Shown: in pieces, positions 3,259-54,623 of the stretch
Layout: each line of letters starts with the position of its first letter
Position numbering within the stretch: position 1 is the stretch's first letter
Notes under the pieces: generated by a model
Databases searched by the model: none
What the model saw: the letters and a program-made list of their open reading frames with translations, nothing else
Told to the model about the DNA's origin: nothing
Position numbers and translations under genes: made by a program
Assembly (NCBI GenBank): GCA_030018415.1
Contig: JASEGC010000001.1
Coordinates: 55,261-119,260 of the forward strand
From: Candidatus Aenigmatarchaeota archaeon
GTDB taxonomy: Archaea; Aenigmatarchaeota; Aenigmatarchaeia; CG10238-14
Direction: 5' to 3'
Length of the DNA stretch: 64,000 bases

Positions 3259-3582
3259 ATGAGAAAAAGAGTAAAAAAACCTTTTTCACAGACAAGAATA
3301 GCAAAGGAAAGGATAGAAAGGCTGTTTGATTTGGCTAAAGATGAGTTAAAAAATCATCCTGAAAGAAGCAAAAAATACGTAGAACTTGCCAGAAAAATAG
3401 GTAAAAGGTACAACGTTAGGTTCACAAAAGGACAAAAAAGAAATTTCTGTAAGAGATGTAACCAATTGTTGATGCCAAACAAAACTTCTCAAGTCAGAAT
3501 AGACTCAAAGAAAAAACTCATAATTATTAAGTGCATGGATTGCGGTTATATATACAGATATCCCTACGAGAGGAGGAAATAA
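3259..3582 (+). CDS. rnp4: Ribonuclease P protein component 4 (Rpp21)
   Basis: IAKERIERLF...YVELARKIG...CKRC...CMDCG zinc ribbon. True start is ATG 3259. Confidence 0.92.
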   Translation: MRKRVKKPFSQTRIAKERIERLFDLAKDELKNHPERSKKYVELARKIGKRYNVRFTKGQKRNFCKRCNQLLMPNKTSQVRIDSKKKLIIIKCMDCGYIYRYPYERRK

Positions 3583-3583
3583 C

Positions 3584-3832
3584 TTGCCGTTCGACTGGAA
3601 CCTTGTCAGCATCAGCTTAACAGTAGTTTTTATAGCAACATTCGTTTTGTTCTACATATTCGACAACCTTGCAAAAATATGGAGTTTATGCGAAAAAAAT
3701 AAAAGTTTTAAAGTATGTACATTAGGTTCATTACCAGTCATCGTACTCATGCTTTTGTTGATAGCTGGCGGGTTGATAATGGTAATAAACATAACTGCAT
3801 ACATAATGATATCTGGAAGTACACGTGTTTAG
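3584..3832 (+). CDS. Small two-TM membrane protein
   Basis: TTG start after GGAGG, two hydrophobic helices, operonic position. Confidence 0.65.
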   Translation: MPFDWNLVSISLTVVFIATFVLFYIFDNLAKIWSLCEKNKSFKVCTLGSLPVIVLMLLLIAGGLIMVINITAYIMISGSTRV

Positions 3833-4250
3833 TATGAAAGATGTGGATCCAAAGAGGTTCATCGAAGTTTGTAAAGAAGAATTGAAAAGGGTTGAAAAGA
3901 TTAAACCACCCAGTTGGGCAAAATTTGCAAAAACTGGAATGAGTAGAAAATTTCCTCCCAAACAAGAAGATTGGTGGTATACGAGAGCAGCATCAATACT
4001 GAGAAGAATTTATCTTGATGGTCCAGTCGGTGTTCAAAGATTAAGGACATATTATGGCGGAAGAAAAGATAGAGGACATAAACCAGAAAGATTTAAGAAA
4101 TCTGGAGGTAGTATAATTAGAAAATGCCTACAACAATTGGAATCAGCCGAACTGATACAAAAAAGTCAAAACACGAAAAAGAAAGGTAGAATAATCAGTG
4201 AAAAGGGAAAAAAATTTATAAGTAAAATATTATCCGAAGTGAAAAAATGA
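3825..4250 (+). CDS. rps19e: 30S ribosomal protein S19e
   Basis: PPSWAKFAKTG...WWYTRAASILRRIY...GPVGV.RLR..YGG motifs. Confidence 0.97.
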   Translation: MFSMKDVDPKRFIEVCKEELKRVEKIKPPSWAKFAKTGMSRKFPPKQEDWWYTRAASILRRIYLDGPVGVQRLRTYYGGRKDRGHKPERFKKSGGSIIRKCLQQLESAELIQKSQNTKKKGRIISEKGKKFISKILSEVKK

Positions 4251-4513
4251 ATTATTTGACGCCTGAACAACTGCAACAACTGCAAGAATTGGAAAAGTTG
4301 AAGAAAATTGTGATGAGAAAAGTACTGACAAAAGAGGCCGTAGAAAGGCTGGGAAGGATAAGGATGGTTAAACCAGAGTTGGCTACACAGTTAGAACTTT
4401 ATTTAGTGCAATTGTATCAGTCTGGTCAAATTAAGAGTGTGATCAATGATACTCAGTTGAAAAAAATATTGGACTCTATAACTCAGAGTCCAAAATTCAA
4501 GATAATCAAGTAA
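4247..4513 (+). CDS. PDCD5/TFAR19-like DNA-binding protein
   Basis: LTKEAVERLGRIRMVKPELA..LE.YL.QL.QSG motif; conserved neighbour of rps19e. Confidence 0.9.
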   Translation: MNYLTPEQLQQLQELEKLKKIVMRKVLTKEAVERLGRIRMVKPELATQLELYLVQLYQSGQIKSVINDTQLKKILDSITQSPKFKIIK

Positions 4514-4518
4514 TTCAA

Positions 4519-4743
4519 ATGACAAAAACTAAAAAAGTTGGCTTGACAGGAAAGTTTGGATCAAGATATGGGAGAGGAGTTAAAATTGTATATGAAAAAA
4601 TAGAAAGAAAGCAAAAACTAAAGTATACATGTCCAAATTGTAAAAGAACATCGGTCAAGAGAATTTCAGCTGGCATTTGGCAATGTATGAAATGTCATAC
4701 AAAATTTGCTGGTGGGGCGTATTCTCCAAAGACTGAATCATAA
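4519..4743 (+). CDS. rpl37ae: 50S ribosomal protein L37Ae (eL43)
   Basis: KKVG.TGKFG.RYG, CPNC, GIWQC.KC...AGGAY. Confidence 0.97.
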   Translation: MTKTKKVGLTGKFGSRYGRGVKIVYEKIERKQKLKYTCPNCKRTSVKRISAGIWQCMKCHTKFAGGAYSPKTES

Positions 4744-4752
4744 AGTGATGAA

Positions 4753-4915
4753 ATGGTTTTTAAATGTATAAAATGTAAGAGTGTGGTTGAGGAATTAGAA
4801 GAAAGAATCAGATGTCCTTATTGCGGGCATACTTGTTTGGTTTGAAGCCAGCAAGGCCCAGAGAATTTTCGTTAAAATGAGGCCCGAAGTAATTAAGAGA
4901 GTACAAGCTAGATAG
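4753..4915 (+). CDS. rpoP: RNA polymerase subunit P (Rpo12), interrupted by a 31-nt BHB intron at 4831-4861
   Basis: Exon 1 MVFKCIKC...IRCPYCGH plus exon 2 RIFVKMRPEVIKRVQAR* gives 43 aa. It lies in the conserved rpl37ae-rpoP-pcc1-pfdB order and is missed by the ORF track. Confidence 0.9.
4831..4861 (+). other. BHB-type mRNA intron in rpoP (31 nt)
   Basis: Central helix GGGC/GCCC, 3-nt bulges AT^A and AG^A, intron stem CTTG...CAAG. Removal restores the frame. Confidence 0.88.
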
Positions 4916-4992
4916 AATTATTTCTCGTAATCCTCTCTAATTCTTCTTTTTGATTTATATGAATGGGTTTCCTATTATATTATCGATAAAAA

Positions 4993-5220
4993 ATGCAAGC
5001 AACTTTAAAGATTGAATGCAAGAACCCTGAAATTATTAAAAAAAGTTTATTACCTGATATCAAAGAAAGAAAAGATTTAAAGATTAATTTGAAAACTGAT
5101 AAAAATAATTTAATCATAAAAATCGAATCTAAAAAGATAAGTTATTTAAAAGCTGTTATCAATACATATTTATCTCTTGTCAAGACTTTGAAAGAACTGG
5201 AGGAATTACATGATCACTAA
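4993..5220 (+). CDS. pcc1: KEOPS complex subunit Pcc1
   Basis: SLLPD...IES..ISYLKAVINTYL motif; position between rpoP and pfdB. Confidence 0.8.
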   Translation: MQATLKIECKNPEIIKKSLLPDIKERKDLKINLKTDKNNLIIKIESKKISYLKAVINTYLSLVKTLKELEELHDH

Positions 5221-5545
5221 AGAAGATAGAAAATTGCTTGACCAATTTCAATCGTACCAACAACAACTTCAAGCGATACTAATACAGAAAGAAAACTTAA
5301 GATTGCAGATACTTGAGGTCGATAAAGCTGTAGAAGAATTAGAATTAAGCAAGGAGAAAGAGGCTTATAAAATCGCTGGACCAATAATGATAAAGAAAAG
5401 TTCCGTTGACTTGAAGAACGAATTAAAAGAAAAGAAAGAGAATTACAATTTGAGGATAAAAACTCTGGAAAAAGCCGAAAATAGAATAACAAACAGTTTA
5501 AGAGAGATGGAACCCAAGTTAAAAGAAATAATAAAAGAAGGTTGA
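5210..5545 (+). CDS. pfdB: Prefoldin beta subunit
   Basis: Coiled coil with AYKIAGPIMIK hairpin. Confidence 0.92.
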   Translation: MITKEDRKLLDQFQSYQQQLQAILIQKENLRLQILEVDKAVEELELSKEKEAYKIAGPIMIKKSSVDLKNELKEKKENYNLRIKTLEKAENRITNSLREMEPKLKEIIKEG

Positions 5546-5549
5546 TTCT

Positions 5550-5807
5550 ATGAAAAACATAGAACCGATCATCAAGCTGTTGACAGTTATAATCGAAGAT
5601 AGAACTGTGCCGAGAAATATAAGGGCTGCCGCAGAAGAGGCAAAAAAAGAGTTAACTGAAAAAAGTGATAATACTTGGGATATAAGGTTGAGTTCAGCCA
5701 TATCAACACTCGATGATATAATCAACGATCCAAACATGCCCATTTATACAAGAACACAGATATGGAATGTTGTGAGTATGTTAGAGGCTGTTAAAAGAGA
5801 ATTATAA
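5550..5807 (+). CDS. UPF0147 family protein
   Basis: D.TVPRNIR.AA...DPNMP.YTRT.IW motif. Confidence 0.9.
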   Translation: MKNIEPIIKLLTVIIEDRTVPRNIRAAAEEAKKELTEKSDNTWDIRLSSAISTLDDIINDPNMPIYTRTQIWNVVSMLEAVKREL

Positions 5808-5849
5808 AGTATTTAAGTTTAAGTATCAAATGGAAATTAGGTGAAAATT

Positions 5850-6203
5850 ATGGTGTTTAAATCTATTTTTAGGAGAGAAGAACCCGAAGAAGAGAAGGAA
5901 GAATTCATCGAAATAGAGCCTGAAGGAGAAGATAAGAGAAAAATTAACGTAAGGATAGAAAACTTAAATGATTACAGAGATGTGGAAGGAATTCAAAAAC
6001 TTATGAGAGAAGGAAACATCGTATTCTTGAGGATGAGAAAACTTAGAGAAAGAGATCTAGGAGAATTAAAGAGGTCTGTCGAGAGGTTGAGAAGAACTTC
6101 CATCGCGATGAATGGAGATATAATCGGCATAGATGAAGATTATCTAGTCTTAACACCATCATTTGCAAAGATATACAGAGGAGAAGCACAACAAGCAAAA
6201 TAA
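5850..6203 (+). CDS. sepF: Cell division protein SepF
   Basis: REGNIVFL...ELKRSVERLRR...GDIIGI...LVLTP; SD GGTGA before ATG 5850. Confidence 0.85.
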   Translation: MVFKSIFRREEPEEEKEEFIEIEPEGEDKRKINVRIENLNDYRDVEGIQKLMREGNIVFLRMRKLRERDLGELKRSVERLRRTSIAMNGDIIGIDEDYLVLTPSFAKIYRGEAQQAK

Positions 6204-6276
6204 GATTTCAATGAATACCATATAATTATTGAACGTGAAAGCAAAAAATTTATTTCTAAGAATAAAGATTAAGATT

Positions 6277-6615
6277 ATGAGCAAAAAAATAATCTTTTTG
6301 TTGATGTTGGTAGGAATCGTTTTCTTTTCTGGTTGTATAGGTCAAGAAAAAATAGAGGTTCCTGACAAGGACAAAGCAGTATCAGCATGCGTAGAGGAAT
6401 GTAATTCTAAATTAAGAGAAGGTGTAGATTTAACTAATGGTCCATGTTTGTTGGATCCGATAAGTGATCTACCAGACTGGGTTTGCGATGTTGCCCATGA
6501 ACCTCGACAAGATGTTGATAACGATCCAAAAAATCAGTGTAGTACATACAGAGAGGGGAGGTCACATCATTTTGTTGAAGTAGACCCTAACTGCAATCTA
6601 ATCAAGACTTGGTAA
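6277..6615 (+). CDS. Cys-rich lipoprotein, hypothetical
   Basis: Lipobox FSGC; GPCL...WVCDVAH.PR...DN...NQC...HFVEVD..C. Confidence 0.75.
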   Translation: MSKKIIFLLMLVGIVFFSGCIGQEKIEVPDKDKAVSACVEECNSKLREGVDLTNGPCLLDPISDLPDWVCDVAHEPRQDVDNDPKNQCSTYREGRSHHFVEVDPNCNLIKTW

Positions 6616-53135: not shown

Positions 53136-54623
53136 TTAACCCTTTACAACTCCTAAAGGAACTAATCTAGCCACGCGCTTACTTATTCCAGCTTCTTCGG
53201 TTATCCTTGCTACTTCATCTATGTCCTTGTAAGCCTCTGGTGCTTCTTCTGCCATAACTCTCCAACTAGCAGCCCTTGATAAAATTCCTTTCTGGACAAG
53301 CCTTCTTGCTACTTCTTCCCCCCTCAAACCCCTTAACATTTTAGCTCTTGAGGCAACTCTTCCTGCCCCATGTGCGGTTGAATAGAAAGTTTCTTTTGCT
53401 GTATCTGATGCAACTAAAACGTAACTTGCACTACCCATACTCCCTGGAATAATCACTGGCTGCGCTGTATTTCTATAATCCTTTGGTATTTCTGGATGTC
53501 CTGCAGGAAAGGCTCTAGTGGCCCCTTTTCTATGAACATAAACCTTGACTTTTTTCCCATCGATCTCATGTTCTTCAATTTTTCCAATGTTGTGAGCGAC
53601 GTCATAAACAACTTCAAGACCCATGTCCTCCATTTTCATCCCTAAAACTTTTACAAAACTTTCTCTTACCCAATGATTTATGATTTGTCTGTTGGTCCAA
53701 GCATAGTTAGCTGCGCAAGCCATCGCAGAAAAATAATCTTCACACTCTTTTGTGCCAGAGGAGGCATAAACTAGTTCTCTATCTGGGAGTTTCCTTATTT
53801 CGTCTCTAAACCTTGATTCCAAAATTCTTAGGTAATCTGTACAAACTTGATGTCCAAAACCTCTTGAGCCTGTATGGATCATAACTGCTATTTGTCCTAT
53901 CTTTTCAATACCGAAAACTTTGGCAACTTCTGGGAGGAATATTTTATCTACAAGTTGAACCTCAAGAAAATGATTACCTGCCCCTAAAGTTCCAAGCTGA
54001 GGAGCACCTCTTTTCTTAGCTTCATTAGAAACTTTTTGTGGGTTTGCACCTTTCATGCAACCATTTTCTTCCAGATGATCTAAATCTTTTTCAGTGCCGT
54101 AACCTTTCTCAACAGCCCATCTAGCCCCATTTACTAAAACTTCATCCAACTCAGAAAAACTTAACCTTATTTTGCCTATTTCTCCCACTCCAGAAGGTAC
54201 ATTCCTAAAGATTGATTCTAACAATTCTCTTAATTTTGGTCTTATTTGATCTACAGTTAAATTCGTTCTAAGTAAGCGGACACCACAGTTGATGTCAATT
54301 TCGGGGATTTATACAGTCCAATCCGATGCCACCAGGTGAGAGTCCGCCACTGTTGTAATCCAGCGCTGCAACCCCTCCGATAGGAAATCCTTGGTCGCTT
54401 TCTAGCTGTAACCGAAATGCATATCGGGGAGTGCAATGCTATGTTTGTAGATGCCAGGCAGAAAAGCTACGTTTGCAGCTTGTTCAATTGCTTCTTCTTC
54501 AACTTCTCTAAGAAGTCTATCAGATAGGAATAATAAGACTGGTACTTTCATTCCTGGTTTTGCTTCTTTAGGCAGTTCCCACCTACAATTCGCAATCTTC
54601 TTTAATCTTTCCTTTAAGTTCAT
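53136..54623 (-). CDS. rtcB: tRNA-splicing ligase RtcB, interrupted by two BHB introns (54391-54407 and 54299-54320); 482 aa after splicing
   Basis: Spliced frame reads PDMHFGY^GFPIGGVAA...SPGGIG^FDINCGVR and continues to GNHF, HTGSRG, HRKGAT, HGAGR, EEAP.AYK, VVKG. Confidence 0.93.
54299..54320 (-). other. BHB-type mRNA intron 2 in rtcB (22 nt)
   Basis: Central helix TCGG/CCGA, bulges AT^T and AA^T, intron stem GGA/TCC, exon stem GGTGGCA/TGACATC. Confidence 0.9.
54391..54407 (-). other. BHB-type mRNA intron 1 in rtcB (17 nt)
   Basis: Central helix GGTT/GACC, bulges AC^A and AA^G, intron stem GCT/AGC; contains an in-frame TAG. Confidence 0.88.

Follow-up and report, generated by a model that had tools for sequence, protein, structure and literature searches.

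The DNA analysed here is a stretch of 64,000 nucleotides (the window; C8:55261-119260 in our contig numbering) of a Micrarchaeota-like DPANN archaeal genome. This source genome (G000) comprises 1.19 Mb in 16 contigs with 36% G+C and is 89% complete. The subject of this work is the gene for RNA polymerase subunit P (rpoP, Rpo12), which at positions 4753-4915 of the window is broken by 31 nucleotides (nt) having the core of a bulge-helix-bulge (BHB) intron. The parts of the interrupted gene are the following.

4753..4830, + strand: rpoP exon 1, 26 codons covering the first CxxC, the second CxxC, G and H (open reading frame list, PF03604, tblastn with 28 relatives)
4831..4861, + strand: putative BHB-type intron, 31 nt, phase 0, 52% G+C (gap against two congeners, join scoring)
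4862..4915, + strand: rpoP exon 2, 17 codons plus TAG, beginning R-I-F-V-K (tblastn; best match 94% identity over 17 amino acids)

The Interrupted Reading Frame

The open reading frame (ORF) that begins at ATG 4753 reaches a TGA stop at 4843-4845 after 30 codons, while the frame starting at AGA 4862 encodes the C-terminal tail of RpoP and ends at TAG 4913-4915. When position 4830 is joined to 4862 in silico, a 43-residue product is obtained that aligns without gaps to the intact RpoP of 28 relatives. The place of the join was also sought without regard to structure, by scoring 4826 deletions at rpoP against the RpoP of three relatives, and the two best were deletions of 31 nt starting at 4831 or 4832. 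In a MAFFT alignment of the DNA with two genomes of the same genus (G001 and G002), the sole long gap is 4831-4861, and at the rpoP site the contig of a relative from a groundwater metagenome run is 31 letters shorter than the window (38 against 69). Both exons are open and conserved, and the best tblastn match of exon 2 is the RpoP of a congener. The insert occurs once in the source genome, with no copies elsewhere in it.

Synteny and RpoP homology support the assignment of the interrupted locus to rpoP. Both CxxC pairs of the four-cysteine RpoP zinc ribbon are encoded in exon 1, and the basic tail R-[IV]-[FL]-x-K-x-R follows CG-x directly only once the exons are joined, being then colinear with the 28 relatives. 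Searching the source genome by tblastn with the RpoP of these relatives, exon 1 was matched by 28 of 28 queries and exon 2 by 27; no second full-length match was found, and elsewhere only generic zinc ribbons appeared. Exon 1 alone scores 11.8-12.8 bits with PF03604 over model positions 2-25 of 32, against a gathering cut-off of 24, and the profile finds nothing above that cut-off in this 89% complete genome. The cut-off is passed in only 9 of 41 genomes, and many relatives with an intact RpoP also score below 24 bits. Partial PF03604 matches in four other genomes (G003, G009, G026 and G031) were considered as split rpoP genes and rejected, being unrelated zinc ribbons or an RNA gene.

A first-pass annotation of the window, made from its letters, had already placed a cryptic rpoP at these coordinates, between rpl37ae and pcc1, with a frame that stops at TGA and resumes in another frame, and with cutting at the standard sites giving CPYCGH-RIFVK. 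All of this holds on re-reading the sequence and the ORF list, on Pfam assignment of the neighbours and on comparison of gene order, and the proposed join is one of the two best among the 4826. Its expectation that standard annotation would miss the gene agrees with the PF03604 scores, and the intact rpoP elsewhere that it named as a refutation was not found in the source genome by PF03604 or by tblastn with the 28 proteins. The neighbouring genes, with their Pfam assignments, are listed in order.

within 3825-5807, + strand: S19e (PF01090, 178.6 bits)
within 3825-5807, + strand: dsDNA-binding protein (PF01984, 80.1 bits)
4519..4743, + strand: rpl37ae (L37ae), upstream neighbour of rpoP (PF01780, 96.4 bits)
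between L37ae and Pcc1, + strand: 30-codon zinc-ribbon ORF, the interrupted rpoP, with no Pfam score in the gene table
4993..5220, + strand: pcc1 (Pcc1), downstream neighbour of rpoP (PF09341, 42.9 bits)
within 3825-5807, + strand: prefoldin beta (PF01920, 59.1 bits)
within 3825-5807, + strand: UPF0147 (PF03685, 103.5 bits)

The intergenic gaps are short, and a family-level relative (G010) has the identical gene order, with an intact rpoP after L37ae.

Structure of the Insert

In a BHB motif each strand consists of an outer helix, a 4-nt strand of the central helix (H), a 3-nt bulge and an inner helix, and the strand is cut between the second and third bases of the bulge. The corresponding elements at rpoP are given below.

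4825..4828, + strand: 5' strand of H, GGGC, exon 1 bases (paired with 4856-4859 in the minimum-free-energy and centroid folds)
4829..4831, + strand: 5' bulge AUA, predicted cut 4830/4831 (unpaired and closed on both sides in the fold)
4832..4855, + strand: inner stem-loop (h'), six contiguous pairs, one bulged U, then four pairs (fold)
4856..4859, + strand: 3' strand of H, GCCC, intron bases (fold)
4860..4862, + strand: 3' splice-site triplet AGA, predicted cut 4861/4862 (sole outer pair C4824-G4863, h = 1)

The fold was computed on 4812-4875, a check already suggested with the first-pass annotation, and it recovers H, the AUA bulge and the inner stem-loop; all four pairs of GGGC/GCCC are Watson-Crick. 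The textbook BHB cuts, 4830/4831 and 4861/4862, coincide with one of the two homology-best joins. Six joins at rpoP are near-best by homology, and only the one excising 4831-4861 has four H pairs, with an inner stem of six contiguous pairs. For an estimate of chance, a BHB core was defined as an H of four pairs, at least three of them Watson-Crick, with an inner stem of at least 3 base pairs (bp). It was matched 277,381 times among about 3.3e8 position-length pairs of the source genome (2 strands × 1.19 Mb × 138 lengths). This rate of about 8.5e-4 per join means that about 0.005 matches are expected over the six near-best joins. The BHB structure put forward in the first pass is thus retained for the GGGC/GCCC helix, the 5' bulge, the inner stem and the cut sites, whereas its 3' bulge AGA is left without a stable outer helix. 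An Rfam search of window positions 3500-6500 gave nothing relevant.

The exon immediately 5' of the insert also differs from that of the congeners. Positions 4822-4830 of the window read TGC GGG CAT, compared to TGT GGT TAT in both G001 and G002, so that three of nine exon bases differ, and it is through these changes that the GGGC paired with the intron arises. The insertion site has, in our view, the appearance of co-adaptation or co-conversion.

Splicing Enzymes and the Interrupted rtcB

The two enzymes that such splicing would need are both encoded in the source genome. EndA is found as one intact ORF of 180 amino acids (C8:371810-372352, - strand) with both Pfam endonuclease domains (83.4 bits), a single gene of the alpha type, and no second copy was detected in the genome even at E = 10. 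The splicing of cbf5, the crenarchaeal gene discussed below, was reportedly linked by Yoshinari in 2006 to hetero-oligomeric endonucleases. RtcB, the RNA ligase that would join the exons, is encoded by a single gene that lies within the window itself. Its PF01139 match contains one TAG and one TAA and reads as three frame segments.

53136..54623, - strand: rtcB (PF01139, 518 bits)
54391..54407, - strand: putative rtcB intron 1, 17 nt, H GGUU/GACC, bulges ACA and AAG, joining HFGY/GFPIGG (join scoring)
54299..54320, - strand: putative rtcB intron 2, 22 nt, H UCGG/CCGA, bulges AUU and AAU, joining GGIG/FDINCG (join scoring)

Both inserts have a canonical BHB. The join of intron 1 is the only near-best one among 170 tested, and that of intron 2 is one of two near-best among 161, with the F codon spanning the junction. 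If rtcB carries two BHB introns, the ligase would be needed for making its own mRNA, which requires a pre-existing ligase. The earlier proposal that rpoP depends on EndA/RtcB splicing is in this way partly supported and partly extended: both enzymes are encoded, and rtcB itself would require two such splices.

With ARAGORN, only 15 tRNA genes were found in the 1.19 Mb, 11 of them with introns, which suggests that many tRNA genes of this genome are disrupted in ways that the program misses. These numbers fit the pattern described in PMC5829648, in which an extra loop (L3) of the alpha4 enzyme in DPANN coincides with the disruption of tRNA genes.

Further Inserts in the Genome

A naive scan of the source genome for BHB motifs that join open frames gave as many real as decoy hits (for example, 4273 versus 4266 at 60 codons); it is uninformative because ordinary neighbouring genes swamp the signal. 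Pairs of frame-switching high-scoring segments in tblastn passed over rtcB, because its exons 1 and 3 share a frame, and were replaced by a frame-aware protein-to-genome alignment. For this purpose 1071 non-overlapping ORFs were taken from G010 (960 kb), of which 504 have a match of at least 60 bits in the source genome and 500 were aligned by a frame-aware dynamic programme. A jump penalty of 14 yielded 636 raw jumps, mostly noise, and 15 of these were kept, in which both flanking exons score at least 40. Two short-exon jumps in EF-2 were added by hand, giving 17 homology-supported interruptions. For each interruption the homologue-best joins were listed first, and the fit to a BHB was asked afterwards.

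Ten of the 17 interruptions have a four-pair H and 3-nt bulges exactly at a homology-best join. Besides the two in rtcB (17 and 22 nt), they are located as follows.

C8:420277-420595, outside the window: EF-2, four putative introns of 32, 20, 14 and 15 nt
C11:79256-79285: aIF2-gamma, one putative intron of 30 nt, in frame and containing a TGA
C8:137860-137899: RNase HII (rnhB), one putative intron of 40 nt
C8:143818-143847: proteasome alpha (psmA), one putative intron of 30 nt
C8:243768-243787: UPP synthase (uppS), one putative intron of 20 nt

Every BHB join restores a signature motif, namely G/HVDHGK, SS/HVHHGKT, GGDV/TRAMR, DEAG/RG, DG/NRRWA, YDRT/IAVFSPDGR, HFGY/GFPIGG or GGIG/FDINCG, and these include the P-loops of EF-2 and aIF2-gamma, the DEAGRG of RNase HII and the RtcB active-site motifs. 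All four EF-2 inserts fall among the first ~110 codons of the gene, the P-loop and GGDV/TRAMR being hit by one each. With rpoP included, the outer helix (h) has 2 bp or fewer in 8 of the 11 cases. Two controls were run. A decoy with parallel pairing gave no match at the 12 sites scored, and the reverse comparison of 510 ORFs of the source genome against G010 gave 12 interruptions, none with a canonical H at a near-best join (one of the 12 having no open join). On this sequence evidence the genome appears to hold at least 11 mini-introns of 14-40 nt, in rpoP, rtcB, EF-2, aIF2-gamma, uppS, rnhB and psmA (the gene count being stated as eight core genes). As a single reference genome was used, the number is a lower bound. 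The single-gene picture of the first pass was therefore understated, with ten more BHB inserts in core genes, including the rtcB of the same window.

The seven remaining interruptions are not BHB: three are frameshifts of 1-2 nt, three are long gaps (214, 125 and 53 nt) and one is a 10-nt jump without an open join. The frameshifts lie in conserved genes (C10:~76231, C8:~375702 and C8:~384833) and may reflect errors of the assembly, genuine pseudogenes or programmed frameshifting. At C8:450557-450928 two G010 proteins flank ~331 extra nt with a change of frame, a candidate for a larger insertion or for something intein-like.

Distribution among Relatives

The rpoP insert was found in neither congener nor in any other relative examined, and we consider on this basis that the intron would be young. 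Within the genus, uninterrupted copies were found of rpoP, EF-2 and aIF2-gamma (in both G001 and G002) and of rtcB (in G002).

Across the order, an RtcB match is present in 102 of 118 genomes, with stops inside the match in eight of these. Sixteen rtcB loci were aligned, and 12 show one or two qualifying interruptions near residues 75-106; three of these interruptions pass the strict H test, one of which also had a decoy match. A 30-36-nt insert at PDGH/SGYG of rtcB, distinct from the rpoP intron, is common to seven genomes of four genera (G037, G076, G074, G073, G056, G077 and G068). Its outer helix, of 6 bp, joins exon to exon, three pairs of its H are accompanied by a G-A mismatch, and its inner stem covaries; RNAalifold predicts 18 pairs on the seven inserts, and compensatory changes are seen at 7 of these. 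Mini-introns with a structure thus seem to be a recurrent feature of coding genes in the order, and the set of the source genome appears unusually large and species-specific.

Some other breaks were seen in the same comparison. The RtcB matches of G007, G028, G040, G017, G014, G107, G069, G101, G111, G115 and others start around model position 28-49 or fall into two parts, and they lie within ORFs of 870-1470 amino acids. These look like inteins in the same N-terminal region as the mini-introns. The aIF2-gamma match of G008 (C8:13587-14825) has one internal TAA, and the EF-2 match of G037 (C5:207900-210005) begins at residue 31, beside the P-loop site that is interrupted in the source genome; both breaks are possible further introns.

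Interpretation and Alternatives

We think that the rpoP insert is very probably a real mRNA intron of the EndA/RtcB type, in a Micrarchaeota-like DPANN genome that has undergone an intron burst. With similar confidence, rpoP can be taken as an interrupted but functional gene, encoding the ~7-kDa zinc-ribbon subunit Rpo12 of the archaeal RNA polymerase. At the in-silico level, this is based on the sequence, the register of the fold, the homology-optimal join, the presence of the enzyme genes and the recurrence of such inserts with controls. The operon transcript is predicted to fold locally, the exon GGGC pairing with the intron GCCC and leaving a 3-nt bulge on each side. The single alpha-type EndA would then cut at 4830/4831 and 4861/4862, after the second base of each bulge, and RtcB would join the exons and probably circularise the 31-nt intron. 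The spliced mRNA would encode the 43-residue RpoP with the junction CPYCGH/RIFVK. For the living cell, we infer that these mRNAs are cut by EndA and ligated by RtcB.

A number of points weigh against this interpretation. The fold energy at rpoP is ordinary (z = -0.79, with 38 of 200 shuffles equally good), and in longer contexts a competing fold is better by 0.2-0.8 kcal/mol; the BHB signal is carried by the register, not by the fold energy. At the 3' bulge, the outer helix is reduced to one C-G pair followed by a mismatch, and constrained folds in three context sizes gave no adjacent outer helix at that site. With an outer helix of 1 bp the motif is strictly a relaxed one, HBh'-like, and according to PMC5829648 alpha4-type enzymes were believed to cut only a strict BHB. 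The rpoP intron itself has no covariation, because it is present only in this genome. Among the public runs holding the rpoP region, no RNA run is listed; the sole run holding part of it (X1) is DNA, with 6% of the sampled words, and its contig is the insert-free relative. Three 1-2-nt frameshifts among 500 genes indicate that the assembly is not error-free, and with a genome 89% complete a second rpoP could lie in the missing part.

The alternative that survives best, although we consider it improbable, is that rpoP is a pseudogene disrupted by a 31-nt hairpin-forming insertion, Rpo12 being dispensable or encoded by a copy in the unassembled 11%. DPANN genomes are reduced, the insert is unique to this genome, and the degree of completeness leaves room for such a copy. 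A dead gene, however, would hardly be expected to keep both exons open and conserved, exon 2 at 94% identity to that of the congener, nor would the insert be expected to pair with exon bases in the exact BHB register. In addition, ten like inserts are present in EF-2, aIF2-gamma, rtcB, proteasome alpha and others, which cannot all be dead in a 1.19-Mb genome, and no second rpoP was found in the 89% that is assembled.

An assembly or sequencing artefact is still less probable. The three frameshifts mentioned above speak for it, as does the fact that an exact 50-nt pattern with the insert had no matches in metagenome_contigs, a scan outside of which the records of the window's own genome may fall. 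Nevertheless, known error modes do not yield inserts of 14-40 nt that pair with the exon, have two 3-nt bulges and restore the frame at the BHB cuts. There are 11 of these in the source genome compared to none in 12 interruptions of the control genome, and the rpoP insert is not a repeat of other sequence of the genome.

An equally slight chance can be given to the gap being crossed in translation, by ribosomal bypassing as in phage T4 gene 60 or by other recoding. The TGA at 4843-4845 comes after the break and within the hairpin, loosely like a take-off site, and the take-off codon CAU differs from the candidate landing codon CAG only in the third base, so that the two are nonetheless unmatched. 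Bypassing would have to operate 11 times, with codons that differ from site to site and over gaps of 14-40 nt; the feature common to all 11 sites is the BHB register, not codon identity; we know of no archaeal precedent. Least probable of all is that the two halves are made separately and assemble unjoined: split protein genes do occur in Nanoarchaeum and exon 2 has an in-frame ATG at 4877, yet exon 2 does not begin with a start codon, a peptide initiated at the ATG would have no more than 12 residues and be devoid of the conserved R-I-F-x-K segment, and the halves are just 31 nt apart with a BHB on the junction. These alternatives are weak because none explains eleven inserts in essential genes that are all in BHB register with upstream exon bases and restore the frame.

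Taking the inserts as EndA/RtcB-type introns, a further-reaching reading can be proposed only tentatively, as one that we would hesitate to call probable. The genome might record a recent burst of mobile BHB mini-introns of 14-40 nt that encode nothing and depend on EndA/RtcB, and that were inserted into, or survive only in, catalytic-motif codons of essential genes, the zinc ribbon of RpoP among them.

Comparison with Known Systems

The closest known case is the intron in cbf5 of Crenarchaeota (Watanabe 2002; Yokobori 2009, PMC2738675). In the accessible parts of PMC2738675 and PMC7714728, it is the only BHB intron reported in a coding sequence. Like the rpoP insert, it is a BHB in a coding gene, lineage-specific and missed by gene callers, and it is removed by the tRNA splicing endonuclease, the type of enzyme predicted for rpoP as well. 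The differences are the following: cbf5 has one intron in one gene per genome, whereas the present genome would have at least 11, with up to four per gene and some of 14-15 nt, and it belongs to another superphylum than the Crenarchaeota. New relative to the cbf5 kind are the number of inserts, their very small size, their position in catalytic motifs and a ligase that would depend on itself. The other mRNA case is the BHB intron in the 5' untranslated region of HVO_1309 of Haloferax volcanii, added in 2020, until which time cbf5 was the sole other example, according to PMC7714728. This intron is an EndA substrate in an mRNA, as predicted for the rpoP insert, but it is located in an untranslated leader and interrupts no codon. 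In the literature searched, supplementary files apart, no coding gene of DPANN or Micrarchaeota was found to be described as having a BHB intron.

The BHB introns of archaeal pre-tRNA and pre-rRNA share with rpoP the 4-bp helix, the 3-nt bulge at the 5' site (the 3' triplet of rpoP being of the relaxed form), the predicted cuts and the expected use of EndA and RtcB. Unlike them, the inserts described here have an mRNA as host, a position set by the reading frame and a weak outer helix. The unconventional HAC1/XBP1 splicing of eukaryotes offers another parallel, as an endonuclease cuts structured sites of an mRNA, the ligation is of RtcB type and the shift of frame alters the C-terminus; there, however, the enzyme is IRE1 and not EndA, the sites are paired stem-loops and not a BHB, and the process is a regulated stress response. 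Finally, inteins and homing introns are also found within the most conserved catalytic motifs of essential genes and are patchy among close relatives. In contrast to them, the inserts of this genome are only 14-40 nt long, without coding for an endonuclease or any other protein, and no mechanism of mobility is known for them.

Significance

Ten such inserts in essential genes, in addition to that of rpoP, are very unusual for a prokaryote. If the intron interpretation is true, mRNA splicing by the tRNA machinery can be genome-wide in a prokaryote, and the self-dependence of rtcB would be an unusual heritable loop. In practical terms, essential genes such as rpoP, rtcB and EF-2 would be called missing or broken by gene callers when DPANN genomes are annotated, and estimates of completeness as well as metabolic inferences would be distorted. 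Moreover, the placement in catalytic motifs together with the absence from congeners would make intron gain directly testable. Should the more tentative reading of a mobile burst hold too, the related introns that other families of the order have at almost the same rtcB positions, without being identical, would mean repeated gain or lateral spread, and the lineage would be a natural prokaryotic model of protein-spliced introns colonising coding genes.

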